Origin: a virus
Taxonomy: Duplodnaviria > Heunggongvirae > Uroviricota > Caudoviricetes
Strand: one strand, 5' to 3'
DNA length: 64,000 nt
Virus record (IMG/VR): IMGVR_UViG_2579778842_000003
Numbering within the stretch: the first letter of the stretch is position 1; each line of letters begins with the position of its first letter. Of the stretch, positions 23,908 to 64,000 are shown piece by piece. The notes beneath the pieces were generated by a model. It did not search any database, was not told the DNA's origin, and saw only the letters and a program-made list of their open reading frames with translations. Position numbers and translations under genes: made by a program.

Positions 23908-24769
23908 TCTATACAGGCATGTATAACAACAACGAGCCTATTAGCTGTCAACAACATTATTTTCTCAAATAAGAAAAAGCAGAAAACAAATTGTTTAAGA
24001 TCACAAATTGTGGCCTTGATGGAGGAGGGAGGCTTATTGGCTATGGCTAAAAATCAAATTAGACACTTCATGTTGCTGTAGCTCATCAAGATCCGAGGCC
24101 ACAAAACCTTTTCCGAAAAACTTCACAAGTAACTCACTAGCTGCATCATTGTCACCTATTACACGAAAGTCATACGGCAACGTCGCAAGTTGACGATGTA
24201 ATCCTGCTGAGAAAGTCGAATCTAACAGCGCCCAGAATTCCCACCGCAGGATAATACTCGCCTCTTAATACTGTATATATGTTGTTACGATATGTTTTTC
24301 TGTCTCTAAAAAAAGATGTTAATAGAATGCTAACCATTGAAGGGGATAAAAATATACAATTCCAACAAACGTTATTTTTAACAATTTTTTTCTTTGCGTT
24401 GACTTTCCCTGACACCTTGTCTGACCGAAGGTGCGCGAAAGCCACTTTTTCCTTCCTGAGTTATCCACAAAGTTATGCACTTGCAAGAGGGCCATTTTCT
24501 ACATATTGTGGTGGCTAACAGATGAAATGAATGTAGATTAATTGAAGATAAGGAGAAAATTTGAGATGCAATCATGACGTTAATAGATAGGGTCTGCATT
24601 ACAGACCCCACCCGCATCAAGGAATTAGCCGTTCCCTGATGTTTTTCCGAAAACATGTGCCGTAAGCTCACGTTAACGACTTTCATTCACCGAATCCAAC
24701 TATATAGGGGTTGGGTTTCTACGTCAACGTGAGCAAGTGCACCTTTACATTTGACAAGGAACCACCTGA

Positions 24770-26016: not shown

Positions 26017-26372
26017 TTCTTTTCACATTCCTTAGTCCATTTTTCAATGTTCATTTTGGCAATATCAGTCATTCCATCACCTAAGAAATACTTTTTCCGG
26101 TACGTCTTGCACTTAAACCACACTACAACAGCCACCAGCCAGAAAATAAAAGGCCATACAGCAATACCAACGACAGCCGCGATAAAGCCCAATAGCCATA
26201 AATGAAGCTCTCCAACTTCTGTTTCCGGCAATATTCTTAAAGAATTAAACAGCAGGCTGAACGAATGGTCGTATGCATTGGCAGTATAAGACATGCAATC
26301 CATATAATTAAAGTCATAGCCTGCGGCTGCCGCCCATAATGGGCGGTCAAGAAAATGTTTTAGTGTCATCAT
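25998..26372 (-). CDS. predicted membrane protein
   Basis: 124-aa ORF with a long hydrophobic segment (LWLLGFIAAVVGIAVWPFIFWLVAVVVWF) and a basic C-terminus. Confidence 0.45.
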   Translation of the reverse strand: MMTLKHFLDRPLWAAAAGYDFNYMDCMSYTANAYDHSFSLLFNSLRILPETEVGELHLWLLGFIAAVVGIAVWPFIFWLVAVVVWFKCKTYRKKYFLGDGMTDIAKMNIEKWTKECEKKWRKKK

Positions 26373-26378
26373 ATAAAT

Positions 26379-26768
26379 TTAAGGTTCAGACCAGTTATCT
26401 TCAATAGCAATGCTTAATCTTTGTAGCCATTCTGCTAATTTCAGCATTGCTTCTCTTTCGCTTAAACCACGAGGAAAATCATCAAGCGAAATTGTTGGCT
26501 TGAATCCCCCGCAATTATCCATTTCAACTGTCAGATTTTGTTCCAGCACGGTATTTCTTACGCGGCTATTGTGCCGGAGCAAATATACTGAGCATGATTT
26601 ATTGGTTTTGTGGTCTAGCTTATATTCGGTAAGTATCATCTGGCTTTTGCCATGATTATTACCTCTCCACATACTTACCTCACTTAATAAAACAACTCCA
26701 TGCGTAGTTGATGATTTTTTCCCACGTAATATAAATCTGCACTCCGGCAGTAAAACCAAAGCCAACAA
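26379..26768 (-). CDS. hypothetical protein
   Basis: 129-aa ORF; start uncertain. Confidence 0.4.
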   Translation of the reverse strand: MLALVLLPECRFILRGKKSSTTHGVVLLSEVSMWRGNNHGKSQMILTEYKLDHKTNKSCSVYLLRHNSRVRNTVLEQNLTVEMDNCGGFKPTISLDDFPRGLSEREAMLKLAEWLQRLSIAIEDNWSEP

Positions 26769-26850
26769 TTGCTGAAAAAATCAAAACATTTACTTTTGAC
26801 ATTATAAACTTTCTCTCGGTGTCGTAGGTGATAGCACCATAATTGATAAT

Positions 26851-27084
26851 TTAGTGAGTTAGCAGTTCCATTTTTTTGATGATTTCCGCATGAGCATCAT
26901 CGTTATCAACACTTAGCTCGTTTAATGCTTCTCGCACTACATCAACTTCTTCAGGCTGAAAGAAGTCGTCGCGGTAATCACCAAATAGAACCGAAACCAG
27001 CCTGCTACCAGCAACATCAAGATTGGCGCTAACAGGTGGCTCTTTGCCATCCTCAAATTCGACTACAAAAGTTAATTTTCCCAT
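26851..27084 (-). CDS. small acidic hypothetical protein
   Basis: 77-aa ORF. Confidence 0.45.
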   Translation of the reverse strand: MGKLTFVVEFEDGKEPPVSANLDVAGSRLVSVLFGDYRDDFFQPEEVDVVREALNELSVDNDDAHAEIIKKMELLTH

Positions 27085-27160
27085 CGTTACCCCCAGAAGA
27101 TAAAAATAGCGGCAATCGCCATAGCTACGCCTACAATCGCAAATGCTTCAGGCCAGCTTA

Positions 27161-27421
27161 TTACCTCACCTCCAGTCTCCATACCGCCTGACCAATCCGG
27201 CTGGCATGGGTATCTTTGGATACTGTTCCATCTTTAGCCAGCTCCATAAGAATTTTGCGCAAATCTGCCGAACGCCATTCTTCATCAGGAAATTCCTTCT
27301 CCATTGCCAACCGCAGATTCCAGGTTGCTATCGTGAATGGATATTCCCCGCCGAGAGCTTTCTCTTGCAGGGCAGCACGGGAACGTATCACCTGCAAAAC
27401 CTTCTCTTTTACATCCATCAT
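27161..27421 (-). CDS. hypothetical protein
   Basis: ORF 27161..27493 trimmed to Met-25 (MMDVKEKV), which abuts the upstream stop. Confidence 0.45.
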   Translation of the reverse strand: MMDVKEKVLQVIRSRAALQEKALGGEYPFTIATWNLRLAMEKEFPDEEWRSADLRKILMELAKDGTVSKDTHASRIGQAVWRLEVR

Positions 27422-28605
27422 TTTGCCTCCTGCGGCGGTTCTGGTAGCGGCATCCAGTGTGATGGTATCCACGACGCACCAGGTATTACCCACCCATCAT
27501 TAGCGTCAGGATGCCCCGGGATGTAAGTCGCCCATTTCATTCGCCAGTCACCTTTCCTGTCAAACTCCCTGGCAACAAGAACGGCTGTTTTGGTATCCGG
27601 CATTCGCTCACTACAGCTTATCCAACTATCCGGAATTACCGGAAAGTTGCGCATTGCGACCTTTAATGCCTCATAGAAGCACTCTTTCAAATTGTTGAAC
27701 TGACACCCATTTAGAGGACCGTGTTCAGTCAGCATGTTGTGTAATTTCCATGCCGCGTCGTTTACTGCGTTGGATGACATGGGAGGCAACTTGTAAGCCT
27801 GGCTTACAGGCTCGGAACCATGAAGAATGGCGGCGCGGCAGGCATCCTCTACGCCCTTAACTGCATCTGCGCAGTAGTTATAGCGATTGCATTCCACTAA
27901 CTTCTGCTTGAGATTTTCAATTGCTTGTGCGACATCAGCCTGTATTGGTGGAACGGCTGTCTGCTGCTCTCGAACGTCATTAGTCGCTATCGGTTCTGCT
28001 GCCAACTGACTGGCATATTTGTTAATGGTAACGATAAGCTCTTGCTCAGCCTCATCCAGACAATCACCGATACCTCGTCTGTCGCCGTCAAAATCATCGA
28101 AATCAGCACGAACTCTGGCAAACTTCAGGATTGCGGACAACACCTCACCAGGAATTACCGGAGAGTTGGTTGACGTTTCCGCAATTTCCCGAAAATTATT
28201 GGTTGACGCATTCGCGTTTTTCCGAAAGTTTCCGGCATGAAGCATAGCCGCGCGGCAGGCGTTCCAGCCTCTCACCTCTGCAATAGCGGCAACAGCATCG
28301 ACCGCGTACATGCTAAGAGGGTTAGGCATTGGTTTTTCTTCCGGTACTACTGGCGCTGGAGGGGCAGTGTAAAGCTGGTGCGTTCCATCAGGTAGCGAGT
28401 GACCCACATACTCACCGACCCCGTCAATACACATGCCCCCATCTTCAACAATGCATTCCGCTACAGGCTCTGCTTCCAGTGATGCCAGCGCAATCCGTGC
28501 CAGCTCTTCCGCTTCTTCTGCTGGCAGTACAACGTTGCTACCAGGTCCGTATGTTTCGCGCCACTCCTTGATTGTCAGCAGTCGCTCTTTGGTAATAGTG
28601 ATCAT
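27418..28605 (-). CDS. hypothetical protein with DUF551-like Trp-rich C-terminal domain
   Basis: 395 aa; C-terminus WISCSERMPDTKTAVLV...HWMPLPEPP resembles the DUF551 family as recalled. Confidence 0.5.
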   Translation of the reverse strand: MITITKERLLTIKEWRETYGPGSNVVLPAEEAEELARIALASLEAEPVAECIVEDGGMCIDGVGEYVGHSLPDGTHQLYTAPPAPVVPEEKPMPNPLSMYAVDAVAAIAEVRGWNACRAAMLHAGNFRKNANASTNNFREIAETSTNSPVIPGEVLSAILKFARVRADFDDFDGDRRGIGDCLDEAEQELIVTINKYASQLAAEPIATNDVREQQTAVPPIQADVAQAIENLKQKLVECNRYNYCADAVKGVEDACRAAILHGSEPVSQAYKLPPMSSNAVNDAAWKLHNMLTEHGPLNGCQFNNLKECFYEALKVAMRNFPVIPDSWISCSERMPDTKTAVLVAREFDRKGDWRMKWATYIPGHPDANDGWVIPGASWIPSHWMPLPEPPQEAK

Positions 28606-29117
28606 GCCGCGTTTCCTTCTTTCTTATTAACAATTACACCGTCATATATTTCATTAAGGTGCCCTCTCAACTCCATGCGCCTTAATGCAGATAACATGTA
28701 ATCGCATTCAACCTGCTTATTCCCAATAAAAGGTTTATCTTCAGGGTTACCCCAACAGCAATTCCCCTTGGGCCATCCATGTACTTTCCGTACTCTTCCG
28801 TTAACAACGTGAAGTAATCCCCAGCCAGGAGGTAAATCCTCAATTGAAATAATTCCCGGCTCACTAATAAAGAATCGCCAGTCGCCCATGCCAAGTGAGG
28901 GATTTTTACGGAAACGCTTTTTTCTATCTGCCAACAAATCAGCACGAGAACACTTCGCCTCTATCAGGCATGATGCTGAATTTCTGAATCCCATAGCATC
29001 TGGCTGTTCTCCGGTACTGGTTACAGCTATAAAGCGGTCATGAAAACAAACCTTGAACCCGTTGCGCTTAAGGAACTTGTACGCAATCTGACAGAGTTCG
29101 CGGTGTGTTAACGCCAT
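28602..29117 (-). CDS. putative PD-(D/E)xK-type nuclease
   Basis: Start at MALTHREL; TGEQPDAMGF ... CLIEAKCS gives a D/E ... PD ... E-x-K pattern. Confidence 0.45.
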   Translation of the reverse strand: MALTHRELCQIAYKFLKRNGFKVCFHDRFIAVTSTGEQPDAMGFRNSASCLIEAKCSRADLLADRKKRFRKNPSLGMGDWRFFISEPGIISIEDLPPGWGLLHVVNGRVRKVHGWPKGNCCWGNPEDKPFIGNKQVECDYMLSALRRMELRGHLNEIYDGVIVNKKEGNAA

Positions 29118-29118
29118 A

Positions 29119-29787
29119 TCACTCTCCTTTGATGCGAATGCCAGCGGCGCGTGGCACATTAACTTCCACGATGCGCACAGTTGGTTTGTACATCTCAATC
29201 GCAGTCAGCCAGTCAGCGCCAGTCATGCGCTTTTCTGCATCGCCATTAGTCCACTTAACCGGTACACCAATAGCCTTCATCGCGATTTCTATTTCCCCGG
29301 CAATGGCGCTTTTTCCGCAACCAGTAAAACCAGATACAACGACCAGAACTTCACCTTTGGCTGGTTTTATTTCCCGCGCTTCCAGTTCTGCTATGCGCTT
29401 ACTTCCATCCGAGATAACACCTTCGTAATACTCACGCTGCTCGTTGAGTTTTGATTTTGCTTCCTCAAGCTCAACTCTCAGCTTCCCTACCGTTAGCGCA
29501 ATATCCTCGTTCTCCTGGTCACGGCGTTTGATGTATTGCTGGTTTCTTTCCCGTTCATCCAGTAGTGCCAGCACGGTTTCTGGTCCGGCCAGAAATTTGA
29601 AGGCGTTGAGCGCATCAATATCCACACCGTAATCTTTAAGTTCCTGTTCACTTAACAAATCATCATCAGCTGGCAACATTAACAGGCGTTCCATTGCTGG
29701 AATTGCACGTTCCGCCGCCTCACGCAGTGCCTGATAGTCAATCTTGCTCACTGGTTGCCTCCTTGGCGGAGTTGCGCTGCGATGCAT
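29119..29787 (-). CDS. coiled-coil protein with C-terminal P-loop (Walker A GFTGCGKS)
   Basis: 222-aa ORF; Walker A motif in the C-terminal third. Confidence 0.5.
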   Translation of the reverse strand: MHRSATPPRRQPVSKIDYQALREAAERAIPAMERLLMLPADDDLLSEQELKDYGVDIDALNAFKFLAGPETVLALLDERERNQQYIKRRDQENEDIALTVGKLRVELEEAKSKLNEQREYYEGVISDGSKRIAELEAREIKPAKGEVLVVVSGFTGCGKSAIAGEIEIAMKAIGVPVKWTNGDAEKRMTGADWLTAIEMYKPTVRIVEVNVPRAAGIRIKGE

Positions 29788-29987
29788 GAAAAAAAAGACT
29801 CCCGAGTGTGACAGTTAAGAGCTGGTGCGAACGCCGCGTTAAGAACGGCGGCATCACAGCCGTCATCAATATAGAGCGCAATTTTTTTCTCCAGGCGCGC
29901 TTTGGCTTCCTGCAACTGCATACCCCGGCACGCACGCGGGATATAATCAGCAATTTGAGCGATAGCTTTTTCGTTCTGTTTAAACAT
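29748..29987 (-). CDS. hypothetical small protein
   Basis: 79-aa ORF overlapping neighbours; weak. Confidence 0.3.
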   Translation of the reverse strand: MFKQNEKAIAQIADYIPRACRGMQLQEAKARLEKKIALYIDDGCDAAVLNAAFAPALNCHTRESFFSCIAAQLRQGGNQ

Positions 29988-30183
29988 GCTTCACCTCGAT
30001 AGGCTTGATGGTGTCTAACAGCAGTCGGCGGCGCGTATTTTCTGCAAAATGGCGGCGCCCAGTTTCTTTGTGGTAAAACTCGTTTTTGCCGACGACCCAC
30101 ATCCGCTCTGTTTGGTGCAGTTTTTTTACCTTCGGGCCATCTTTGGTGATCACGGTACCGGTATGGGTTTTTACGATTGTCAT
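29980..30183 (-). CDS. hypothetical small basic protein
   Basis: 67-aa ORF coupled to the upstream PAPS-reductase-like gene (stop/start overlap). Confidence 0.4.
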   Translation of the reverse strand: MTIVKTHTGTVITKDGPKVKKLHQTERMWVVGKNEFYHKETGRRHFAENTRRRLLLDTIKPIEVKHV

Positions 30184-31058
30184 TCCACTACCTCTTCGAA
30201 TTTCAACTCCAATTGGTCACCCCAGATTTCACATGATTCGGAACACGAACCAGTATCAAACCGCTTGGCCAGCACCATCGCCTGATACAAATTTCTGTAG
30301 TCACTGTCGGCATACATTCTGGCAATCCCGTCAAGCGTCAGGTGGCCACGGTACATAACGTCTTTACCTGTTCTGCGCTGACCATCCCTGACGTGTTTGC
30401 CTGTAACCAGTTCATTAAAAACCCGCATCAGACCTGGTTCGTCTTTACATGCAAGCCCCAGCTTTTGCGTTGACTTTTTGATGCAAAAAACACAGTTCCC
30501 GAGGTGCTCCGGGATTTGCAAATCAAAAGGTTGTTTTCGCCACCACCGGATAACATCCGACTTATCAAAATCTGACAGTTCGGCAAGATACCGGACGCCC
30601 GGTTTCGGTTTCAGCCTACGGGGTTCGTCCGCACGAATACCGAGCCATGTGATGTAATTCCCTCGCCCAAAATGATCATCGCAATATTTCGTGAAAGGGG
30701 TGAGTTTTAGCCTGTCGGTACAGAACGCGCCGCCGATGTATGGCGTACCGTACTTTTTAACCATGTCCATAAACGGTTTAAGCACCGGCATTCGCGTCTG
30801 AATATCCTTTGGTTCCCATTCCGTATAACCATTTGGCTGCCCAAGTTCTGGATTTATATCGACCTGCAACACCGTTAGCGGTACGTTCCAGAACTTCACA
30901 ACCTCACGAATAAAGCGATACGTCAGAGGATGTTCACAGCCGGTATCCATAAAAATGAAATGGACGCTAGCGCCAGCTTTTCGCTGTGCTTCCATCAGAT
31001 GAACGAGATAAGCCGATGTTCGTCCACCTGAAAAGCTGACAACTTGATGCATACTCAC
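30180..31058 (-). CDS. PAPS reductase-like / PP-loop ATP pyrophosphatase family protein
   Basis: 292 aa; N-terminal SFSGGRTSAYL (SGGxDS-type PP-loop). Confidence 0.7.
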   Translation of the reverse strand: MSMHQVVSFSGGRTSAYLVHLMEAQRKAGASVHFIFMDTGCEHPLTYRFIREVVKFWNVPLTVLQVDINPELGQPNGYTEWEPKDIQTRMPVLKPFMDMVKKYGTPYIGGAFCTDRLKLTPFTKYCDDHFGRGNYITWLGIRADEPRRLKPKPGVRYLAELSDFDKSDVIRWWRKQPFDLQIPEHLGNCVFCIKKSTQKLGLACKDEPGLMRVFNELVTGKHVRDGQRRTGKDVMYRGHLTLDGIARMYADSDYRNLYQAMVLAKRFDTGSCSESCEIWGDQLELKFEEVVE

Positions 31059-31061
31059 GGT

Positions 31062-31790
31062 TTATTCCTGAATGCGCTTAAACTCGATTACCCACACCCA
31101 GGGATTAGCGTTCCAGCTTTCTTCACCATAGATGGATTCCCACAGGCGCTGGAACGCAACCTTGGCCATTGCGAAATCCCCCTTGGGAGTAAGGAATGTT
31201 CCCGGGTGATCAGGAAGCAAACTTCCAGCAGGCGGAACGCCCTCATCCCTTGCATCGCATTCGCTGATATCGTTCAACCGCTCAACGCGCACGTTGGTAA
31301 TTTCCAACAGGATGCGTGATGCCCATCGCGGCATGTGAATTGATGGACGCCACCCACCATCAAACTTTTCATTCACTGTGTGAGGTTTCCAGTCGGCATC
31401 ATCTGGTATCGACCATAAACCGTAATCACCAGGCTTTTGCTCACAACTGGCCCGATAAATCCTTGCTGCGTTCTTCTCATCGCCACGACAAAGGTTGTCG
31501 TTCCAGTCCACACTGCAACCATCTTCATTGCCTAATATCGCCCATGTTTCACGAACCCAAATTCGATCGCCGACGATACCAAAGGGGCAATTGAAAACAC
31601 TGCTTACACCATCAGCCCCGTACCACTGAAAACCTGCACCAATTTTTCTAACCATCACTGGTGCTTCTGGACCAACTTCCGCAGGCTGATTTTTCATTAT
31701 CCGCCGCGTCTGCGTTTTCCTTCCTTCGAGGATGGCCCGGACCATCTCATCGTTGAAAATCATGCCGCGCTCTTTCACTTCGCCTTTCAT
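31062..31790 (-). CDS. hypothetical protein, ASCH/PUA-like (tentative)
   Basis: 242 aa; N-terminal MIFNDEMVRAILEGRKTQTRR as in ASCH-like phage proteins as recalled; start may be Met-10. Confidence 0.45.
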   Translation of the reverse strand: MKGEVKERGMIFNDEMVRAILEGRKTQTRRIMKNQPAEVGPEAPVMVRKIGAGFQWYGADGVSSVFNCPFGIVGDRIWVRETWAILGNEDGCSVDWNDNLCRGDEKNAARIYRASCEQKPGDYGLWSIPDDADWKPHTVNEKFDGGWRPSIHMPRWASRILLEITNVRVERLNDISECDARDEGVPPAGSLLPDHPGTFLTPKGDFAMAKVAFQRLWESIYGEESWNANPWVWVIEFKRIQE

Positions 31791-45345: not shown

Positions 45346-45372
45346 GGATTACTGCCAATTTTGCTTACGCTT

Positions 45373-46200
45373 TTATTTCACCGGAACAAACGGAACAGCG
45401 GTATTACTGGTCATATACTGCGGTAATGTACCGTTCCATTTGTTGATCGCTTCCAACTCCATAACACCGGGGTTCTGGCGCAGAGCTTCACCACGTAAAC
45501 GAATGGCATCAGCTTCGGCCTGGGCTTTTGTGCGAATAGCATCAGCCTGTCCGGCAGCTTCCGCGCGCAGCATGTTGGCCTCTGCTTCACGTTGTTTGAC
45601 CTCTTGCTCGCGTTGCAGGGTTTTTTGGTTTGCCGTGACTTTGGCGTTAATACTGTCAATAACTGTTGGCGGGTATTCTGGCTTACCTACATAAGAGAGG
45701 CTCATCACCTGAATGCCGATTGGCGTCATTTCTTCCTGAATGTCTTTAAGGGCTGCATCAAGCAATTCAGATTTGCCACCGTCGATAAATTTGTCGGTGG
45801 TCATTTTGCTGGCTAACCGGTTCAGAGCATCTGCAACCTTCTGGCGTAGATCGGTATCAGTAATATCATCTACACCTTTGCGATAGGTCTGAAATACCGT
45901 TGTGACTTTTGCTGGATCAACCTTGTAGGCTACGCCGATGTGGTAACCAATGGTTGTTCCGTCGCTCATCTGGAAGCTGAACGGCTCATCGTATGTCTTC
46001 ATTTGCTTAAAGGTCGGGAAGATATAAACTTCAGTATTCAAGCCTGTCCAGTAGCGACCAACGCCAACTACTTCACCGATACCTTTATCATCCCCCAGCT
46101 TATTTACTTTGATCCCTACGTTACCTGGCTCTACCCGATCGCATCCGGTCAGACATAAAGAACCCAAAATAATCGCTGCACTAATCAACGTTTTTTTCAT
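45373..46200 (-). CDS. SPFH/band-7 domain lipoprotein
   Basis: 275 aa; signal peptide and lipobox (LCLTGC); central SPFH-like region and Ala/Glu-rich coiled-coil C-terminus. Confidence 0.6.
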   Translation of the reverse strand: MKKTLISAAIILGSLCLTGCDRVEPGNVGIKVNKLGDDKGIGEVVGVGRYWTGLNTEVYIFPTFKQMKTYDEPFSFQMSDGTTIGYHIGVAYKVDPAKVTTVFQTYRKGVDDITDTDLRQKVADALNRLASKMTTDKFIDGGKSELLDAALKDIQEEMTPIGIQVMSLSYVGKPEYPPTVIDSINAKVTANQKTLQREQEVKQREAEANMLRAEAAGQADAIRTKAQAEADAIRLRGEALRQNPGVMELEAINKWNGTLPQYMTSNTAVPFVPVK

Positions 46201-55193: not shown

Positions 55194-56390
55194 ATGAGTG
55201 ATTCCAGCCAGCTTCACAAGGTTGCTCAAAGAGCAAACAGAATGCTCAATGTTCTGACTGAACAAGTACAGTTGCAAAAGGATGAGCTACACGCGAACGA
55301 GTTTTACCAGGTCTATGCGAAAGCGGCACTGGCAAAATTGCCTCTACTGACTCGAGCGAACGTTGACTATGCCGTAAGTGAAATGGAAGAAAAGGGTTAT
55401 GTTTTCGATAAACGCCCTGCTGGCTCTTCAATGAAATATGCGATGTCAATTCAGAACATCATTGACATATATGAACATCGCGGAGTGCCAAAATACCGGG
55501 ATCGCTACAGCGAAGCGTATGTGATTTTCATCTCCAATCTTAAAGGCGGTGTGTCAAAAACTGTATCGACGGTTTCTCTGGCGCATGCAATGCGTGCCCA
55601 CCCTCATCTTCTGATGGAAGATTTAAGAATTCTGGTTATTGACCTTGATCCGCAATCTTCAGCAACGATGTTTTTAAGCCATAAACACTCTATTGGTATC
55701 GTAAACGCAACATCTGCACAGGCTATGTTGCAGAATGTAAGCCGTGAAGAGCTGTTAGAGGAGTTTATTGTTCCTTCTGTTGTACCTGGGGTTGACGTTA
55801 TGCCTGCGTCGATTGACGATGCCTTTATTGCATCCGATTGGAGAGAGCTGTGCAATGAGCATCTACCGGGTCAGAACATCCATGCAGTCCTGAAAGAAAA
55901 TGTGATTGATAAGCTGAAGAGCGATTATGACTTTATCCTCGTTGATAGTGGTCCTCACCTTGACGCCTTCCTGAAAAATGCTTTGGCCTCGGCCAATATA
56001 CTGTTTACACCTCTGCCGCCTGCAACTGTCGATTTCCACTCATCGCTTAAATACGTTGCCCGCCTTCCTGAGTTGGTAAAACTCATTTCGGATGAAGGCT
56101 GCGAGTGCCAGCTTGCGACTAACATTGGTTTTATGTCCAAGTTGAGTAACAAGGCAGATCATAAGTATTGCCATAGCCTGGCTAAAGAAGTGTTCGGTGG
56201 GGATATGCTCGATGTCGTCCTCCCTCGCCTTGACGGTTTTGAACGTTGCGGCGAGTCTTTTGACACTGTTATTTCAGCTAACCCGGCAACGTATGTTGGT
56301 AGTGCTGATGCATTGAAGAACGCGCGAATTGCCGCGGAAGATTTTGCTAAAGCAGTTTTTGACCGTATTGAATTTATCAGATCTAACTGA
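55194..56390 (+). CDS. parA: ParA partition ATPase
   Basis: 398 aa, MSDSSQLHKVAQRANRMLNVLTEQ...; deviant Walker A (KGGVSKT); matches P1 ParA as recalled. Confidence 0.93.
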   Translation: MSDSSQLHKVAQRANRMLNVLTEQVQLQKDELHANEFYQVYAKAALAKLPLLTRANVDYAVSEMEEKGYVFDKRPAGSSMKYAMSIQNIIDIYEHRGVPKYRDRYSEAYVIFISNLKGGVSKTVSTVSLAHAMRAHPHLLMEDLRILVIDLDPQSSATMFLSHKHSIGIVNATSAQAMLQNVSREELLEEFIVPSVVPGVDVMPASIDDAFIASDWRELCNEHLPGQNIHAVLKENVIDKLKSDYDFILVDSGPHLDAFLKNALASANILFTPLPPATVDFHSSLKYVARLPELVKLISDEGCECQLATNIGFMSKLSNKADHKYCHSLAKEVFGGDMLDVVLPRLDGFERCGESFDTVISANPATYVGSADALKNARIAAEDFAKAVFDRIEFIRSN

Positions 56391-56406
56391 GGAGTAAGAA
56401 ACCCCC

Positions 56407-57408
56407 ATGTCAAAGAAAAACAGACCAACAATTGGGCGAACCCTTAATCCTTCAATATTAAGCGGATTTGATAGTTCTTCAGCCTCTGGCGATCGAGTCG
56501 AGCAGGTATTCAAGTTATCAACTGGTCGCCAGGCCACATTTATTGAAGAGGTAATACCTCCGAACCAGGTAGAAAGCGATACCTTTGTTGATCAGCATAA
56601 CAACGGGCGTGACCAGGCATCTCTTACGCCAAAATCATTAAAAAGTATCCGAAACACTATTAAGCATCAGCAATTTTACCCTGCAATAGGTGTTAGACGG
56701 GCTACAGGGAAAATTGAAATTTTGGATGGTTCCCGGCGTCGAGCTTCTGCCATCTTAGAGAACGTAGGGTTGCGGGTTTTAGTCACGGACCAGGAGATCA
56801 GCGTTCAGGAAGCGCAAAATTTAGCGAAAGACGTTCAGACAGCATTGCAGCACAGCATTCGAGAAATAGGTCTGCGTTTGATGCGAATGAAAAATGATGG
56901 GATGAGTCAGAAGGATATTGCAGCCAAAGAAGGGCTGTCTCAGGCGAAGGTCACGCGTGCTCTCCAGGCAGCGAGTGCTCCGGAAGAATTAGTCGCCCTT
57001 TTCCCTGTTCAGTCGGAATTAACCTTTTCGGACTACAAAACGCTTTGTGCTGTTGGCGACGAAATGGGGAACAAGAATTTAGAGTTTGATCAGCTTATTC
57101 AAAACATATCCCCGGAAATAAACGACATCTTATCCATTGAAGAAATGGCCGAAGATGAAGTTAAAAATAAAATCCTGCGCTTGATAACAAAGGAAGCCTC
57201 ACTACTCACGGATAAAGGTTCTAAAGATAAGTCCGTAGTTACTGAATTATGGAAATTTGAGGACAAGGATCGCTTTGCAAGGAAGCGCGTGAAAGGCCGT
57301 GCATTTTCTTATGAGTTTAATCGACTTTCAAAAGAGCTACAGGAAGAACTCGACAGGATGATTGGGCATATCCTTAGAAAGAGCCTCGATAAAAAGCCGA
57401 AGCCTTAA
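56407..57408 (+). CDS. parB: ParB partition protein
   Basis: 333-aa ORF directly downstream of parA and upstream of parS. Confidence 0.93.
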   Translation: MSKKNRPTIGRTLNPSILSGFDSSSASGDRVEQVFKLSTGRQATFIEEVIPPNQVESDTFVDQHNNGRDQASLTPKSLKSIRNTIKHQQFYPAIGVRRATGKIEILDGSRRRASAILENVGLRVLVTDQEISVQEAQNLAKDVQTALQHSIREIGLRLMRMKNDGMSQKDIAAKEGLSQAKVTRALQAASAPEELVALFPVQSELTFSDYKTLCAVGDEMGNKNLEFDQLIQNISPEINDILSIEEMAEDEVKNKILRLITKEASLLTDKGSKDKSVVTELWKFEDKDRFARKRVKGRAFSYEFNRLSKELQEELDRMIGHILRKSLDKKPKP

Positions 57409-57421
57409 ATTTTCGCCATTC

Positions 57422-57500
57422 AAATTTCACTATTAACCAACTGTTTTTAAAGTAAATCCATCTAAAATTTCAAGGTGAAATCGCCACGATTTCACCTTGG
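57422..57500. promoter_or_regulatory. parS: parS centromere (box A ATTTCAC heptamers and box B TCGCCA)
   Basis: ATTTCAC at 57424-57430; palindromic GTGAAATCGCCACGATTTCAC at 57475-57495; AT-rich segment between them. Confidence 0.8.
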
Positions 57501-57560
57501 ATTTTACCTTCCTCCCCTACTCCCGAAAAAAATAAAAAAATTGCTTGTCACGAGAAAGTC

Positions 57561-57582
57561 AACAAGTGACTTTCAATAAAAT
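57561..57582 (+). promoter_or_regulatory. P1-type late promoter candidate upstream of the major head gene
   Basis: AACAAGTGACT-TTCAA-TAAAAT. Confidence 0.45.
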
Positions 57583-57612
57583 CTCTTCCGAAAAGGGATT
57601 CACACAAGTGCC

Positions 57613-59340
57613 TTGTGTTTAAGGAAGAGTAAATTGAGTAACTTACGCGAATACCAGAATCGTATTGCAGATATCGCAAAACGCTCTAAAGCTGTGCTTG
57701 GCTGGGCAAGCACTGCGCAGTTCGGTACTGATAACCAATTCATTAAAGATGATGCCGCGCGTGCCGCATCTATCCTTGAAGCTGCACGTAAAGACCCGGT
57801 TTTTGCGGGTATCTCTGATAATGCCACCGCTCAAATCGCTACAGCGTGGGCAAGTGCACTGGCTGACTACGCCGCAGCACATAAATCTATGCCGCGTCCG
57901 GAAATTCTGGCCTCCTGCCACCAGACGCTGGAAAACTGCCTGATTGAGTCCACCCGCAATAGCATGGATGCCACTAATAAAGCGATGCTGGAATCCGTCG
58001 CAGCAGAGATGATGAGCGTTTCTGACGGTGTTATGCGTCTGCCTTTATTCCTCGCGATGATCCTGCCTGTTCAGTTGGGGGCAGCTACCGCTGATGCGTG
58101 TACCTTCATTCCGGTTACGCGTGACCAGTCCGACATCTATGAAGTCTTTAACGTGGCAGGTTCCTCTTTTGGTTCTTATGCTGCTGGTGATGTTCTGGAC
58201 ATGCAATCCGTCGGTGTGTACAGCCAATTACGTCGCCGCTATGTGCTGGTGGCAAGCTCCGATGGCACCAGCAAAACCGCAACCTTCAAGATGGAAGACT
58301 TCGAAGGCCAGAATGTACCAATCCGAAAAGGTCGCACTAACATCTACGTTAACCGTATTAAGTCTGTTGTTGATAACGGTTCCGGCAGCCTACTTCACTC
58401 GTTTACTAATGCTGCTGGTGAGCAAATCACTGTTACCTGCTCTCTGAACTACAACATTGGTCAGATTGCCCTGTCGTTCTCCAAAGCGCCGGATAAAGGC
58501 ACTGAGATCGCAATTGAGACGGAAATCAATATTGAAGCCGCTCCTGAGCTGATCCCGCTGATCAACCACGAAATGAAGAAATACACCCTGTTCCCAAGTC
58601 AGTTCGTTATCGCGGCTGAGCACACGGTACAGGCGGCGTATGAAGCACAGCGTGAATTTGGTCTGGACCTGGGTTCCCTACAGTTCCGCACCCTGAAGGA
58701 ATACCTGTCTCATGAACAGGATATGCTGCGTCTTCGCATCATGATCTGGCGCACTCTTGCGACCGACACCTTTGACATCGCTCTGCCGGTTAACCAGTCC
58801 TTTGATGTATGGGCAACCATCATTCGTGGCAAATTACAGACTGTATATCGCGACATTATTGAGCGCGTTAAATCTTCTGGTGCGATGGGGATGTTTGCTG
58901 GTGCTGATGCAGCATCTTTCTTCAAACAGTTGCCGAAGGATTTCTTCCAGCCAGCCGAAGACTATATCCAGACTCCGTATGTTCACTACATCGGTACCCT
59001 GTTCGGTAACGTGAAAGTGTACGAAGTACCTGCTGGTATTTGTAAGAACTTAACGACAGATAACATTCAGTTCAGCTCGATGGATGTGCTGTGCTACGTC
59101 CGTGATGAAAATCCGGGTAAAGCAGGCTTCGTGACTGGTGATGCTGTCCCGGCCATCCCGTTCCAGCATCCAACCACTCCGGCGCTGGTCAACCGTACCA
59201 CGCTGTGGGGTTCGGCTATCAACGATATGCACCCACGCAACGGCGCTGATTACTTCACTCGTGTAACGCTGACAATGGCCAAAAAAGGCGGGCTTAACTT
59301 CATAAGCGGCGACACGATTGATGCCGGTGACTCTGAGTAA
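57613..59340 (+). CDS. major head (capsid) protein, P1 gene 23 position
   Basis: 575-aa ORF with TTG at 57613; a likelier start is TTG at 57634 preceded by AGGAAG. Late promoter upstream; followed by a sheath-like gene. Confidence 0.65.
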   Translation: MCLRKSKLSNLREYQNRIADIAKRSKAVLGWASTAQFGTDNQFIKDDAARAASILEAARKDPVFAGISDNATAQIATAWASALADYAAAHKSMPRPEILASCHQTLENCLIESTRNSMDATNKAMLESVAAEMMSVSDGVMRLPLFLAMILPVQLGAATADACTFIPVTRDQSDIYEVFNVAGSSFGSYAAGDVLDMQSVGVYSQLRRRYVLVASSDGTSKTATFKMEDFEGQNVPIRKGRTNIYVNRIKSVVDNGSGSLLHSFTNAAGEQITVTCSLNYNIGQIALSFSKAPDKGTEIAIETEINIEAAPELIPLINHEMKKYTLFPSQFVIAAEHTVQAAYEAQREFGLDLGSLQFRTLKEYLSHEQDMLRLRIMIWRTLATDTFDIALPVNQSFDVWATIIRGKLQTVYRDIIERVKSSGAMGMFAGADAASFFKQLPKDFFQPAEDYIQTPYVHYIGTLFGNVKVYEVPAGICKNLTTDNIQFSSMDVLCYVRDENPGKAGFVTGDAVPAIPFQHPTTPALVNRTTLWGSAINDMHPRNGADYFTRVTLTMAKKGGLNFISGDTIDAGDSE

Positions 59341-59400
59341 TCAGGGGAAGTTCTCCGTTTAACATAGCGCCCCCGTGCGGGGCGCATAACAGGGAAAGTT

Positions 59401-60990
59401 ATGTCTCAATATTCAATTCAACAGTCATTAGGTAATGCATCCGGCGTCGCGGTTAGCCCGATCAATGCCGATGCGACGTTATCTACCGGTGTTGCATTAA
59501 ATAGCAGCTTGTGGGCTGGTATTGGCGTATTTGCGCGTGGCAAGCCGTTTACTGTTCTTGCGGTTACTGAGTCCAATTACGAAGATGTTCTCGGCGAACC
59601 GCTGAAGCCGTCTTCCGGCTCACAGTTCGAACCAATTCGCCATGTATACGAAGCTATTCAGCAAACGTCTGGTTATGTTGTTCGCGCTGTTCCGGATGAT
59701 GCGAAGTTCCCGATTATTATGTTCGATGAATCAGGCGAACCGGCTTACAGTGCGTTGCCATACGGTTCTAAAATTGAACTTGATAGTGGCGAAGCCTTTG
59801 CTATCTACGTTGATGATGGTGATCCGTGTATTTCACCTACCCGTGAGTTAACCATCGAAACGGCAACAGCGGACAGCGCGGGTAATGAACGCTTCCTCTT
59901 AAAACTGACCCAGACGACTTCGCTCGGCGTGGTAACGACCCTGGAGACACACACTGTGTCTTTGGCGGAAGAAGCGAAAGATGACATGGGCCGCTTGTGT
60001 TATCTGCCTACGGCTCTGGAAGCCCGTTCTAAATATCTGCGCGCGGTTGTTAATGAAGAGCTGATTTCGACAGCGAAAGTAACAAACAAAAAATCGTTGG
60101 CGTTCACTGGCGGTACCAACGGCGATCAGTCGAAAATCTCAACCGCTGCGTACCTGCGTGCGGTGAAAGTGCTGAACAATGCGCCGTACATGTACACCGC
60201 TGTTCTTGGCTTGGGCTGCTATGACAATGCGGCTATCACCGCATTAGGTAAAATCTGTGCAGATCGCCTGATTGATGGCTTCTTTGATGTCAAACCGACA
60301 TTGACGTACACGGAAGCGATCTCTGCTGTTGAAGATACCGGTTTACTTGGTACCGATTATGTAAGCTGTGCTGTCTATCACTACCCGTTCTCCTGCAAAG
60401 ACAAATGGACCCAATCCCGTGTGGTCTTTGGTCTGTCTGGCGTGGCGTATGCGGCGAAAGCTCGTGGCGTCAAGAAAAACTCTGATGTCGGCGGTTGGCA
60501 TTACTCACCGGCTGGTGAAGAACGTGCCGTCATTGCTCGTGCGTCAATTCAACCGCTGTATCCGGAAGATACCCCGGACGAAGAAGCTATGGTCAAGGGC
60601 CGTCTCAATAAAGTATCTGTTGGCACCTCTGGCCAGATGATCATCGACGATGCTTTAACTTGCTGCACGCAGGATAACTATCTGCACTTCCAGCACGTCC
60701 CATCCCTGATGAATGCAATCAGCCGTTTCTTTGTCCAGTTAGCCCGACAGATGAAGCATAGCCCGGACGGTATTACTGCGGCTGGCCTGACTAAAGGGAT
60801 GACCAAACTTTTAGATCGCTTTGTCGCCTCCGGCGCTCTGGTGGCTCCTCGTGATCCTGATGCTGACGGTACAGAACCGTATGTGCTGAAAGTTACGCAG
60901 GCGGAATTCGATAAATGGGAAGTAGTCTGGGCCTGCTGCCCGACTGGCGTAGCCCGTCGTATCCAGGGCGTACCGCTGCTTATTAAGTAA
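59401..60990 (+). CDS. tail sheath protein (P1 gene 22 position)
   Basis: 529-aa ORF downstream of the head gene; size and position typical of a contractile-tail sheath. Confidence 0.6.
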   Translation: MSQYSIQQSLGNASGVAVSPINADATLSTGVALNSSLWAGIGVFARGKPFTVLAVTESNYEDVLGEPLKPSSGSQFEPIRHVYEAIQQTSGYVVRAVPDDAKFPIIMFDESGEPAYSALPYGSKIELDSGEAFAIYVDDGDPCISPTRELTIETATADSAGNERFLLKLTQTTSLGVVTTLETHTVSLAEEAKDDMGRLCYLPTALEARSKYLRAVVNEELISTAKVTNKKSLAFTGGTNGDQSKISTAAYLRAVKVLNNAPYMYTAVLGLGCYDNAAITALGKICADRLIDGFFDVKPTLTYTEAISAVEDTGLLGTDYVSCAVYHYPFSCKDKWTQSRVVFGLSGVAYAAKARGVKKNSDVGGWHYSPAGEERAVIARASIQPLYPEDTPDEEAMVKGRLNKVSVGTSGQMIIDDALTCCTQDNYLHFQHVPSLMNAISRFFVQLARQMKHSPDGITAAGLTKGMTKLLDRFVASGALVAPRDPDADGTEPYVLKVTQAEFDKWEVVWACCPTGVARRIQGVPLLIK

Positions 60991-60999
60991 GGGAATACA

Positions 61000-61815
61000 A
61001 TGAGCAAAAACTTTTTTCAATCCGGGGCATTTTTGGGGAATGGACTGTCCCGTTTCGCTTTGAACTCTGATCCTGTGCAGCTGATGGAGTCTGCCCGAGC
61101 AAGCGCCGAACCGCCAACAGATCCGGTTATTAATAATAATCCGGAACCGGCGGCACAGACTAACGATAACGTTCCATCTGATCCGGCTCCTGAGCAAATC
61201 CTGGAAGAGAAAGACGGTAAAGAATGGACCGTTGAACAGGCGCACCAGATGATTCTGGAAGCTGCAAATCGAAGTGCGATGCAGAATGCGTTGAGTGATG
61301 CGGCCGACGCCGTTTTCGCCTGGGCTGATAGCGGTGATCTGACTTTCGACTCCCTTGATGGTTTCGTTCAGGCTATCGCTGGTATCTCTGATGACGACGA
61401 CTCCGAAGTTACAGAAGAACAGGACGATGCCTATAACGAAGCATGGGCAAATGTTGCTGACTTCCTCGCAGCATGCGGTGTAGATGATGACATGATCGAA
61501 GCACTGGCTGACGATGAAGACGACGACGCTGCTGCTGATGTTGGTGCCTCTATCGCTGGTTTAGATAGCGACGACCGCGACGAACTGGAAGCGGCGTTTG
61601 TTGTTGCTGGCACTTCTGATGAAATGCTGACTGAAGCATTTAAGAAGGTTGTTCGTAACGGTGAGATCAAACTCATCCGTAAACGCCTGCGGAAAAAACG
61701 TCTGACTGCGGCTCAAAAATCGGCGCTGAAAAAAGCGCGTCGAAAAGCCCAGACCGGCGCGGCAAAACTTGCCCGCAAAAAGTCAATGAAACTGCGCCGT
61801 AAGCGCCTTGGCTAA
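61000..61815 (+). CDS. bipartite protein: highly acidic body with strongly basic C-terminal tail
   Basis: 271 aa; Asp/Glu-rich runs (DDDDSEV, DDEDDDAAAD) then KRLRKKRLTAAQKSALKKARRKAQ...RRKRLG. Confidence 0.5.
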   Translation: MSKNFFQSGAFLGNGLSRFALNSDPVQLMESARASAEPPTDPVINNNPEPAAQTNDNVPSDPAPEQILEEKDGKEWTVEQAHQMILEAANRSAMQNALSDAADAVFAWADSGDLTFDSLDGFVQAIAGISDDDDSEVTEEQDDAYNEAWANVADFLAACGVDDDMIEALADDEDDDAAADVGASIAGLDSDDRDELEAAFVVAGTSDEMLTEAFKKVVRNGEIKLIRKRLRKKRLTAAQKSALKKARRKAQTGAAKLARKKSMKLRRKRLG

Positions 61816-61850
61816 AGGAGGAGGCCGGAGAACTCCGGCCTTTAACTTGA

Positions 61851-62432
61851 ATGGCACCTATACCTTATGGGGTTTACAGCCAGGCTGATGGTGTATCGCC
61901 ATTTCTGAAAGTTACTTTAACGAACTCTCAGTACCAGGTTACCGGATATATCAGCCAGGGGGCAGCAATGAACATGGCCCAGAATTGGGAAGCGCCGTTT
62001 ACCGGTATGTCCATGGGGTCTGTTGCTGGTGCTTTCAGTGGTTTTGCGCAGGTTGGTACTGAAACAACGTCGGTGGCCCGTTGGAACAGCTTAATGGTTT
62101 GGGAGGGGGGAACACCGCCGACTTTCACGCTGCCAGTAACTTTCATCGCTTTGTTTGACCCATTCACGGAGGTTTCAGGAGCTATCGCCGCATTGTCAGC
62201 GATGATTAGCCCGGAACTTAAAGATGCCAGTATTGGTGGTCGAATCCCGGAGCGTGTGACGCTAAACATTGGTCGCCGGATCAACATCATTGATGTCGCT
62301 ATCCAGGACATAAGTTTCGATCTCGATGCACCCAGGGACAGCAATGGGCATTTCCTGAAAAACACCGTCAACCTCCAGTTGACCGGTTCTTCGATATATA
62401 ACAGCTCCGATATTGTTCGGGCGTTCCAGTAA
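61851..62432 (+). CDS. virion tail protein (tail tube candidate)
   Basis: 193-aa ORF in the sheath operon; positional. Confidence 0.4.
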   Translation: MAPIPYGVYSQADGVSPFLKVTLTNSQYQVTGYISQGAAMNMAQNWEAPFTGMSMGSVAGAFSGFAQVGTETTSVARWNSLMVWEGGTPPTFTLPVTFIALFDPFTEVSGAIAALSAMISPELKDASIGGRIPERVTLNIGRRINIIDVAIQDISFDLDAPRDSNGHFLKNTVNLQLTGSSIYNSSDIVRAFQ

Positions 62433-62443
62433 AAGGATTTTAT

Positions 62444-62953
62444 ATGGGGCACAATAACACTAAGGGAAACCGTAAATTTATTAAGGGCCGCTATACTGCC
62501 AACGCGGCCAAAGGCGAACGACTGGTATCTTCTGAATTCCAGCTCACTTTTGCAGGCCATGAAGATATCAGCGTACTGGTTCGCACGTCGCAAATTCCTG
62601 AAATGACCCGCGAGGATGTGGAGGACTATGGTCCGAATGGTGTGAAGTTCAACCAGCACGGTCCAATTCGAAACTCTGGGGAAATCCAGGTCCAGTGCGT
62701 GGAGACTATCGAAGGCGATATTCTTCAGTTCATTAAAGATCGCATTGCGGCGAAGGACTATGTTGATATCACGATGGCTGCTACCCCTGAATCCAAATCT
62801 TCCGGGGTTAACGCTGTGACAAAAGCTGCTACAACAATTGAAATGTTGGACTGCAAAATCTACAGTGATGCAATCGACTTTAGTACCGAAGATGTGACTG
62901 CCGCTGTGCGCCCGTCACTTCGTATCGTCTACAACTGGATTGAGTGGGATTAA
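62444..62953 (+). CDS. virion tail protein (tail tube/assembly candidate)
   Basis: 169-aa ORF; followed by a GGGGAGG/CCTCCCC hairpin at 62984-63002. Confidence 0.4.
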   Translation: MGHNNTKGNRKFIKGRYTANAAKGERLVSSEFQLTFAGHEDISVLVRTSQIPEMTREDVEDYGPNGVKFNQHGPIRNSGEIQVQCVETIEGDILQFIKDRIAAKDYVDITMAATPESKSSGVNAVTKAATTIEMLDCKIYSDAIDFSTEDVTAAVRPSLRIVYNWIEWD

Positions 62954-63250
62954 GTGTTATCCCTTGTACTTTTAATCTTCTTCGGGGGAGGTTTACCTCC
63001 CCTTGATACAACCGCATTCCACCGCCTAGCGAATAGAGTAAAATAACATCTTGTAAATACTCTGGTATGAAGTGAGTGTAAACTAACAGTTACCTATTAA
63101 TAAATACTCCTATACTTTTCTACCTTAAATATTTAGTATGCACATGGTTAAATTTATGTAGCGTCAAAGTTTGTGAAGGCAAGATGTCCGTTAATCTTTG
63201 TCGAAGCATATATGGTTCTAGGAAGTATTGGCTTATTTAAGAGGAATGTC

Positions 63251-64000
63251 ATGTTACGTATCAATGATATGAGCAATATTATTGTAGGTATTTACAGCAA
63301 AAAAAATGAAGAAAAATCATTTGAGTATATGTACTCTTATCTGACAAGGAAAACAGCTTATTTAACACGTGAGTTTATTCGTGATGGTAATCAGGATAAA
63401 GAATTATTAAAAAATACCTATATAGAAGCATTGTCTTGGCTTTTTGCAATCTGTGATAAACTTGAAATACAACCACAGGAAGCATTTTATAAAAAATTTC
63501 CTAGTTGCTGTCCTTATTGCTTAGGGGCGCCTTGTTCCTGTTCTCAAACACACAGAAAGCCAGAGAAAATAAGAAGCGCAAAAGGAATTAAAGATGAGCT
63601 TTTCAATAAATATAACGCTATTAAACCTATGCAATTTCCGCCTTATGCGCCACGAATGATTAATGACATCTATCCGTCGAATAGAACCATTTGGTCTACT
63701 TTTGGTGGGTTTTATCATTCATCCAGGTTATTCGAAGAGTTGGGTGAGTTGCAAGAGGCTTATGCTAAATCAATTGAAGATAAAAATTACAACAAAGAAA
63801 ATCTTCATGAAGAGTGTGCTGATATATATGCTTGGTTGTTTTCTTTATGGGGGATTATTTTTAAAGATGATGATCTTGGCGAGGCGTTTGAAAGTTATTA
63901 TCTAAATGGTTGTCCTGTCTGCAATAAAAGAGAATGTGTTTGTGTCAGTTATTCAGGGAAGATTAGTAAAACTGATGAGAAAAGAGCATCATTGGAAAAA
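63251..64000 (+). CDS. AT-rich ORF running off the window end: MazG-like NTP pyrophosphohydrolase-type helices with CxxC/CxC clusters (3'-truncated)
   Basis: Open from ATG 63251 to base 64000 with no stop (absent from the ORF track); LFEELGELQEAYAK and EECADIYAWLFSL match MazG-type EExxE / EExxD helices; Cys clusters CCPYCLGAPCSCS and CPVCNKRECVCV. Confidence 0.5.
   Translation, partial: MLRINDMSNIIVGIYSKKNEEKSFEYMYSYLTRKTAYLTREFIRDGNQDKELLKNTYIEALSWLFAICDKLEIQPQEAFYKKFPSCCPYCLGAPCSCSQTHRKPEKIRSAKGIKDELFNKYNAIKPMQFPPYAPRMINDIYPSNRTIWSTFGGFYHSSRLFEELGELQEAYAKSIEDKNYNKENLHEECADIYAWLFSLWGIIFKDDDLGEAFESYYLNGCPVCNKRECVCVSYSGKISKTDEKRASLEK

Follow-up and report, generated by a model that had tools for sequence, protein, structure and literature searches.

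The end of the tail-gene operon of a P1-type phage-plasmid raises the question of what kind of gene has come to stand where the classical phage carries other functions, and in whose interest it would act. The DNA concerned is a stretch of 64,000 nucleotides (nt) from the IMG/VR virus record IMGVR_UViG_2579778842_000003, which we call the window. Its last part, positions 62,954 to 64,000, appeared in a preliminary description, made from the letters alone, as an AT-rich insertion after the tail genes that encodes a tandem MazG-like protein with cysteine clusters. We found that the long open reading frame (ORF) located there is the 5' three-quarters of a real, horizontally acquired and monocistronic cargo gene on a P1-type phage-plasmid. 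The encoded protein is best read as a single-chain pseudo-dimer of the all-alpha nucleoside triphosphate pyrophosphohydrolase (NTP-PPase, or MazG) fold. As to its role, our preferred reading, which we put at an even chance, is that of a single-gene exclusion factor made by the lysogen, which would sense or hydrolyze nucleotides. It should be noted that all functional statements made below rest on comparative inference.

The cargo gene and its junction with the P1 backbone

The window lies in the orientation opposite to that of the P1 reference. Positions 49274-62986 match P1 67133-53421 at 98% identity (megablast), and the matching part ends with genes 23, 22, 21, pmgG and bplB. The last conserved P1 gene of this 23-22-21-pmgG-bplB late operon is bplB (62444..62953, plus strand, 98% identical to P1 bplB), which forms the left anchor of the variable slot discussed below. 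When the window was aligned with P1, P7, SJ46 and RCS47, identity continued past the bplB stop codon (62953), entered the terminator hairpin that follows it and was lost at about 62976-62986. From this five-way alignment and the megablast end points, the recombination junction was placed within the hairpin (62976..63005, plus strand), the homology to P1 ending at 62986. The P1 version of the hairpin is AGCTCCTTCGGGAGCT, followed by a run of T, and the version in the window is GGGGAGG-TTTA-CCTCCCC, without the T-run. The base composition also changes here: in 300-nt windows the GC fraction is 0.47-0.53 over genes 23 to bplB, 0.39 at 62900-63199, and between 0.29 and 0.38 from 63050 onward. The shift to AT-rich DNA reported from about 62960 was thus borne out, with GC falling from about 0.50 to about 0.32 past bplB.

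The cargo gene occupies 63251..64000 on the plus strand, and these positions translate to 250 codons without a stop, as had been described. The ATG at 63251 is preceded by AGAGGA, and the homologues align starting at this Met. Positions 62950-63999 are identical to the Escherichia coli plasmid NZ_CP091040.1 (IncY, P1-like), which allowed us to complete the ORF: the full gene comprises 993 nt and 330 amino acids (aa) and is annotated there as WP_000944483.1, "MazG-like family protein". Beyond the window lie the last 80 codons, the stop codon and a terminator hairpin of its own, with a 12-bp stem beginning 8 nt 3' of the stop codon, so that the cargo gene is a monocistronic unit. In this full-length copy the AT-rich block extends approximately 350 bp beyond the stop codon, up to an insertion sequence (IS). 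Upstream, an AT-rich leader of 264 nt (62987..63250, plus strand, GC approximately 0.31-0.39) separates the gene from the junction; it shows no similarity to the flank of a related copy found in a P2-like phage.

A variable slot between bplB and repL

The interval between bplB and repL differs among P1-like elements. In P1 and P7 it holds pmgF plus, on the opposite strand, rlfB-rlfA under a C1 operator. In the lineage studied here pmgF, rlfB and rlfA are missing, and the cargo gene takes their place directly after the bplB terminator. The position given in the preliminary description, at the end of the tail-gene operon, was right, whereas the event was not an insertion but a replacement of pmgF-rlfB-rlfA. 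The order in NZ_CP091040.1 is the 330-aa gene, about 350 bp of AT-rich DNA, an IS, hokD/sok, a 108-aa ORF and then repL. SJ46 has in the same interval a 210-aa ORF, an 83-aa ORF and a Lom-like outer-membrane protein, and RCS47 a 198-aa ORF and an IS. Given these differing contents, the bplB-repL interval can be regarded as a variable cargo slot.

Several occupants of the slot deserve mention. The rest of the slot in NZ_CP091040.1, directly downstream of the cargo gene and before repL (locus L002, 10295-12662), includes an IS that encodes a 378-aa DDE_Tnp_1 transposase, a complete hokD/sok addiction module (Rfam sok, 113.9 bits) and the 108-aa ORF, which is hydrophobic. The cargo may owe its arrival, or a rearrangement, to this IS. 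In P1 and P7, the occupants rlfA and rlfB match the PADLOC defense candidate PDC-M04A/B (E 1e-95 and 1e-51). These genes (7100-8268 in our P1 reference locus, L001) are annotated "possibly associated with lytic replication", and rlfA is a DUF3800 protein; classical P1 may thus carry an unrecognized two-gene defense candidate under a C1 operator. The cargo gene resembles rlfA/rlfB in being an accessory occupant of the slot between bplB/pmgF and repL and in the label of defense candidate. It differs from them in that the proteins (DUF3800 and its partner) are unrelated, lie on the opposite strand and are served by a C1 operator; for them too, defense is a candidate label only.

The gene is rare among elements of this type. 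We found bplB in 680 PLSDB plasmids, 17 of which carry the cargo gene (97.5% lack it). Among 5426 complete E. coli genomes it is present in 19, in all cases on a plasmid and with at least 99.8% identity. It was absent from all 19 P1-type phage records found with the bplB region. That every copy is plasmid-borne and nearly identical points to a recent single acquisition, which is spreading with one P1-like lineage whose isolates come from animals, humans and soil. The ORF is thus not conserved at this position across P1 relatives, and the proposal that it was acquired horizontally, as cargo placed where the tail-gene operon ends, is supported.

Two MazG-like units, two cysteine clusters and a helical tail

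The two repeated units seen in the preliminary description, each ending in a Cys cluster, were confirmed. A profile-profile alignment (hhalign) of residues 1-104 against residues 128-236 gave a probability of 94% and an E-value of 1e-7 over 57 columns, and on this comparison the internal duplication is a real one. Each unit comprises an "IY..N" segment, two long helices and a terminal CxxC-x4-CxC cluster, with the same spacing in both. The first cluster, C87-x2-C90-x4-C95-x-C97 (CPYCLGAPCSC; 63509..63541, plus strand), a presumed zinc knuckle, is invariant in 24 homologues and present in 109-112 of the 113 sequences of a wider set. The second, C221-x2-C224-x4-C229-x-C231 (CPVCNKRECVC; 63911..63943, plus strand), is invariant in all 113. 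All eight cysteines are at least 96% conserved in these 113 sequences, down to approximately 20% identity, and both clusters presumably bind zinc.

The units differ in their acidic residues. Unit 2 (aa 128-236; 63632..63958, plus strand) is an intact MazG-type unit and the predicted catalytic one. It carries the motif E162-E163-x2-E166-x2-E169 ... E188-x2-D191 (LFEELGELQEAY ... HEECADIYAW; 63734..63823, plus strand), whose acidic residues are the expected Mg2+/triphosphate ligands. E162, E163, E166, E188 and D191 are invariant in the 24 homologues, and E169 nearly so; in the 113 members the first five are conserved in 89-94% and E169 in 69% (78/113). Unit 1 (aa 1-104; 63251..63562, plus strand) appears as a degenerate MazG-like unit, both in the hhalign comparison with unit 2 and in the site counts. 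The positions equivalent to the acidic ligands are T32, R33, A36 and T39 in the cargo protein, and across the family acidic residues do not predominate there: at position 33, 65 of 113 sequences have R/K and 26 have E, and at position 59, where the cargo protein has E, 77 of 113 have R/K. For this reason we consider unit 1 a conserved pseudo-enzyme half. The C-terminal tail (aa 237-330) begins at 63959..64000 (plus strand) and continues beyond the window. In an AlphaFold2 model its helices span residues 238-259, 262-284, 287-307 and 312-328 (predicted local distance difference test values of 62-83), and its approximately 90 aa gave only generic four-helix-bundle matches.

Assignment to the MazG superfamily

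Single-sequence searches of Pfam, NCBIfam and PADLOC returned nothing significant, and no DNA-binding family was detected in Pfam or NCBIfam. The only significant single-sequence family match was to PHROG 2245, "NTP pyrophosphohydrolase" (E 3.5e-6). The comparison with the Pfam MazG model PF03819 that had been proposed gave a divided answer, since 24 of the 113 relatives match it at E<=1e-3 (best 4e-11), whereas the cargo protein alone reaches 14.7 bits (E 0.037) against a gathering score of 22 bits. As these searches remained below threshold, profiles and structure were needed. The family profile matches SSO3215 (1vmg) at E 1.1e-4, and the motif of unit 2 aligns position for position with EEVGEL...EELADV of that protein, and also with AF_0060 (2p06). 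This residue-by-residue alignment bears out the MazG motifs noticed earlier in the second unit, and similarity to MazG was indeed found once profile searches were made. Together, the PF03819 matches of the relatives and the PHROG 2245 match support membership of the superfamily well. The assignment holds at the level of profile and fold only, and the enzymatic activity of unit 2 is predicted from its conserved motif.

The cargo protein has the all-alpha helical-bundle NTP-PPase fold, and its best structural match is a phage dimeric dUTPase. With the MazG superfamily (PF03819; SSO3215 1vmg, AF_0060 2p06, YpjD 2gta, E. coli MazG 3cra) it shares the helical bundle and the EExxE...ExxD signature, and with E. 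coli MazG (3cra) also the presence of two tandem MazG-type units per chain. Unlike those proteins, it has a first unit without any acidic ligand and an extra helical tail of approximately 90 aa, and each of its units ends in a CxxCx4CxC cluster that the aligned regions of the matched PDB proteins lack. The gene is, moreover, rare mobile cargo, unlike the core housekeeping MazG. The dimeric dUTPases of phages and of Campylobacter/trypanosomes (5myd, 1w2y) share 7-8% sequence identity with it and have neither the Cys clusters nor the pseudo-domain arrangement. The label "MazG-like" is thus correct at the superfamily level, and neither a new fold nor a new chemistry is at hand.

P1 itself has a gene of this general kind. 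This is uhr (65233-65517 in P1), which encodes a 94-aa protein annotated in RefSeq as a nucleoside triphosphate pyrophosphohydrolase and is the first gene of the C1-controlled uhr-hrdC-dmt operon; in the window, a C1 operator match lies at 51246-51262, within the region of about 50.9-51.3 kb that corresponds to uhr. A paralogous relation between the cargo gene and uhr was rejected, as the two show no sequence similarity (E 3.4). The element probably encodes two unrelated proteins of the NTP-PPase type.

Homologues and their genomic context

A word-indexed search yielded 28 clusters of homologues with 32-100% identity, lengths of about 330-350 aa and invariant motifs; such diversity with invariant motifs indicates a real gene under selection. 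A profile search of 1.84 billion representative proteins retrieved 993 sequences with E<=1e-3, of which 444 reached E<=1e-10 and 101 reached E<=1e-30. When one genome was scanned for each species, 35 loci were located, which belong to Pseudomonadota, Chloroflexota, Acidobacteriota, Bacteroidota, Planctomycetota, Patescibacteria and one archaeon.

The relatives sit in several kinds of mobile DNA. One that is 79% identical lies between the tail genes S and V of a P2-like phage; in P2 this slot, between the O-operon terminator and the V promoter, is occupied by the non-essential Orf30, which is not a homologue of the cargo protein. DNA similarity between the P1 and P2 copies is limited to the coding region and the 12 nt upstream of the ATG. 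Other relatives were found at the tail-fiber end of a P2-like prophage of Providencia, in a lambdoid prophage (early region, with a DNA-methylase gene on one side and the antiterminator Q gene on the other), adjoining a P2-like integrase, and in a small chromosomal islet of Pectobacterium. Among 50,697 phage records a homologue was present in a single one, Vibrio phage 10N.286.54.E11_PE002A (PQ189347.1, 6649-7641; full length, 29% identical). This is an 8-kb filamentous phage (Tubulavirales), in which the gene stands between the Zot-like gene I and a regulator as the only obvious accessory gene, and a MazG-like homologue is unusual cargo for an inovirus. On one metagenomic contig (locus L012, 3155-9029) a homologue with 35% identity lies directly downstream of the genes for the large and small subunits of a class I ribonucleotide reductase, a context that links it to nucleotide metabolism, in one occurrence only.

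An all-against-all BLAST of 270 ORFs neighboring the gene at 37 loci revealed no conserved partner except a protein of 248 aa with two transmembrane (TM) segments. This two-TM protein, of 248-255 aa, follows the MazG-like gene after 33-75 nt in three loci: in Pectobacterium (L007, 9080-9826), in the lambdoid prophage (L011, 9077-9823) and beside the P2-like integrase (L006, 9038-9805). The MazG-like protein of the lambdoid-prophage locus is named Pantoea agglomerans in the protein database. The two-TM protein has its TM segments at the N and C termini and a coiled-coil middle, matches nothing in Pfam or PADLOC, and is a possible effector partner in the membrane. Neither the P1 nor the P2 copy has it, and a tblastn search with it of the P1 downstream flank was negative; since both copies do without the partner, we rejected a derivation of the P1 gene from a two-gene operon that has lost its other half. 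Two neighboring ORFs of 75 aa, in two loci, proved to be unrelated.

Function of the cargo protein

The most informative evidence on function comes from domain fusions. In distant members the tandem module is fused to TIR (at either end), cytidine/dCMP deaminase, Ser/Thr kinase, GGDEF, CHAT or PNP_UDP_1 domains. The TIR and deaminase fusions include close full-length relatives (E 1e-60 to 1e-72), and the members fused to these two domains mostly retain the acidic motif. TIR, CHAT, PNP and deaminase domains make up the usual set of prokaryotic immune effectors, and sensor proteins typically use GGDEF domains and kinases as outputs. Of the 100 ORFs located no more than 3 kb from distant members, several match models of type I, IIG or III restriction-modification, DRT, GajB-like, PD-T4-6-like or PDC-S66/S13 systems; as counts without a background comparison, these neighbors are suggestive only. 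The cargo gene shows what is generic for a defense gene, namely a variable cargo position and modules shared with immune effectors. Taken together, the fusions, the occurrence in four unrelated kinds of temperate phage and in chromosomal islets, the PDC-M04 candidate in the P1 slot and the presence of uhr lead us to favor a host-protective role. The defensive role, its direction and the expression in the lysogen are what we infer from these comparisons.

As an exclusion factor, the protein would be made in the lysogen and would bind and hydrolyze a nucleoside triphosphate. Unit 1, in which the acidic ligands are lost and mostly replaced by basic residues, may be a regulatory or ligand-binding half, and unit 2, with the full acidic set, the catalytic half; a zinc-type knuckle of four Cys would buttress each unit, and the helical tail of about 90 aa would probably serve oligomerization or output. 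Two modes of action can be envisaged. The protein could strip the nucleotides that an invading phage needs, either canonical deoxynucleoside triphosphates (dNTPs) or a phage-specific modified dNTP, the latter specificity being the form that a lysogen could tolerate constitutively. Alternatively, occupancy by, or hydrolysis of, a phage-derived nucleotide could be a signal that switches on an output, which would be the helical tail here and the fused TIR, CHAT, PNP, deaminase, kinase or GGDEF domain in the relatives.

This second possibility can be extended to the whole family, in a proposal that we advance tentatively and consider clearly less probable than the exclusion factor itself. The combination of pseudo-MazG, MazG and double zinc-knuckle may be an unrecognized nucleotide-sensing immune module with interchangeable outputs, of which the P1-plasmid gene would be the minimal, phage-traded, single-gene member. 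The trigger would be a phage-derived or phage-altered nucleoside triphosphate, and the outputs would be TIR, the CHAT protease, the PNP nucleosidase, deaminase, kinase, GGDEF or, in the P1/P2 form, the helical tail; in the Pantoea/Pectobacterium/lambdoid-prophage subclade, the two-TM partner protein might take this part.

The logic proposed here, in which an enzyme or sensor of (d)NTPs acts as effector or trigger, is shared with described systems. Defensive dCTP deaminases and dGTPases act by depletion (10.1101/2021.04.26.441389); in Kongming (KomB-KomC), KomB is an NTP-pyrophosphatase-type protein that responds to dITP (PMC13454610); and in variants of PUA-Cal-HAD systems a MazG-like domain, a predicted effector, substitutes for the dNTP-depleting one (10.64898/2026.01.15.699771). 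DefensePredictor lists MazG domains among predicted, unvalidated defense domains (PMC13092281). The cytidine-deaminase domain carried by some relatives of the cargo protein is a further likeness. None of these systems is homologous over the whole cargo protein, however, and no PUA, HAD, SIR2 or HD partner occurs at the cargo locus.

Several observations weigh against an exclusion factor. GGDEF domains and kinases are also found in ordinary signaling proteins. PADLOC-DB v2.0.0 (2023 release) gave for the cargo protein only a chance-level match to the LmuB coiled coil (E 0.015), and the TIR-fused relative P0039 matches PADLOC through its TIR domain only. The P1 and P2 versions have no recognizable effector domain beyond the generic helical tail, and the PF03819 score of the protein itself is below the gathering score. 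With respect to expression, the leader contains only weak sigma-70-like matches, none of them convincing as a lysogenic promoter, and the cargo gene has the same orientation as the late operon, so that late expression by read-through is possible. Neither a convincing P1 late-promoter box in the leader nor a C1 operator at the locus was found. Finally, there is a documented precedent for a MazG-like enzyme that acts for the phage. This is Atd1, a pyrophosphatase that depletes (p)ppGpp and rescues phage from TIR effectors; it has a single catalytic domain, comes from a lytic Pectobacterium phage and adjoins anti-defense genes (10.1101/2022.06.09.495361).

This precedent supports the most probable of the alternatives, counter-defense, according to which the MazG-like unit would hydrolyze (p)ppGpp or an immune signaling nucleotide during P1 infection or induction and so blunt abortive infection. 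We consider it unlikely, although the lack of any lysogenic promoter in our searches and the shared orientation of gene and late operon leave it some probability; the intact catalytic motif is also what it would call for. What the cargo protein has in common with Atd1 is being a phage-borne MazG-like enzyme, and Atd1 acts in phage-host conflict. Atd1, however, works against defense from a lytic phage, whereas the family studied here is cargo of temperate elements with TIR-fused relatives, and one would not expect a protein that inhibits such effectors to be itself fused to TIR, CHAT, PNP and deaminase domains. The tandem unit with Cys knuckles and tail is likewise unlike the single domain of Atd1, and instead of an anti-defense neighborhood the gene has the late-operon terminator, the IS and hok/sok around it. 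Chromosomal islets and a filamentous phage also harbor members, and the gene is rare among P1-like elements.

An auxiliary enzyme of the nucleotide pool is, in our view, an improbable explanation, more so than counter-defense. Here the protein would serve the replication of its own element by house-cleaning, removing dUTP or oxidized dNTPs or recycling dNTPs to dNMPs, without any conflict between phages. MazG, dimeric dUTPase and HisE-type enzymes classically act in this way (Moroz et al. 2005, as cited in PMC9503650), and the role agrees with the phage dimeric dUTPase as best structural match. Nevertheless, P1-type genomes already possess the unrelated NTP-PPase gene uhr, the 97.5% of P1-like plasmids without the cargo gene manage without it, and a filamentous phage has little need of such an enzyme; the degenerate first unit, the Cys knuckles, the tail and the effector fusions would also be left unexplained. 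The suggestion in the preliminary description of a counter-defense or nucleotide-pool factor is therefore not supported as the leading reading, since fusions, distribution and uhr favor protection of the host.

The least probable explanation is that the protein is not primarily an enzyme but a zinc-knuckle regulator binding nucleic acid or protein, or a plasmid-maintenance or toxin-like factor built on a MazG-derived helical scaffold. In its favor, nothing in the family is better conserved than the two invariant four-Cys clusters, the first unit is already degenerate, and a hok/sok addiction module and an IS adjoin the gene. Against it, five of the six acidic positions of unit 2 remain approximately 90% conserved over a range that reaches down to about 20% identity, and this speaks for catalysis, or the binding of metal and nucleotide, having been retained; no DNA-binding family was detected, and hok/sok is a separate, self-contained module.

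Other features of the window

The window departs from P1 outside the cargo slot as well. A 5.4-kb segment at 25718-31095 without P1 counterpart is inserted at one P1 coordinate (85182, inside pmgT). Judging from the identical plasmid, its products are a PAPS-reductase-family protein, an ead/Ea22-like protein, a DUF551 protein and several hypothetical proteins, and parts of it are present in about 730 plasmids. Two shorter stretches gave no megablast match to P1 50-94.8 kb: 23501-24430 (about 0.9 kb), which corresponds to the upfO/hot/lxr gap (P1 approximately 86.5-87.4 kb), and 45355-46450 (about 1.1 kb), which corresponds to the tciA-tciC region (P1 70.2-70.9 kb). A search of the whole window with the C1 operator consensus ATTGCTCTAATAAATTT, allowing up to 3 mismatches, gave 12 matches against 0.44 expected, which fits an intact P1 immunity network; in the same scan no match fell within 11 kb of the cargo gene.

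Implications

A full-text search of the openly accessible literature found no publication on WP_000944483 or its architecture; a mention of MazG in a paper on small RNAs of enterohemorrhagic E. coli was set aside, as it concerns only the chromosomal mazEFG operon. In the same literature, PADLOC-DB v2.0.0 and NCBIfam, we found neither an architecture of pseudo-MazG, MazG, double Cys4 and tail described, nor its carriage by temperate phages of four kinds, nor a fusion of it with immune effectors. If the defensive role is true, the gene would be a compact, 1-kb, single-gene immune factor that moves among P1-, P2-, lambda- and Inovirus-type prophages of Enterobacterales and Vibrio. It would also lead into a large family, so far undescribed, whose members couple a nucleotide-binding core of the MazG type to TIR, CHAT, PNP, deaminase, kinase or GGDEF outputs, and an NTP-pyrophosphohydrolase sensor or effector would join dCTP deaminase, dGTPase, Kongming and PUA-Cal-HAD in nucleotide-centered immunity. 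If counter-defense is true instead, the family would constitute a new architectural class of phage MazG effectors. On either reading, the label "MazG-like family protein" understates the content, and the bplB-repL interval of P1-like phage-plasmids is a cargo slot worth mining.

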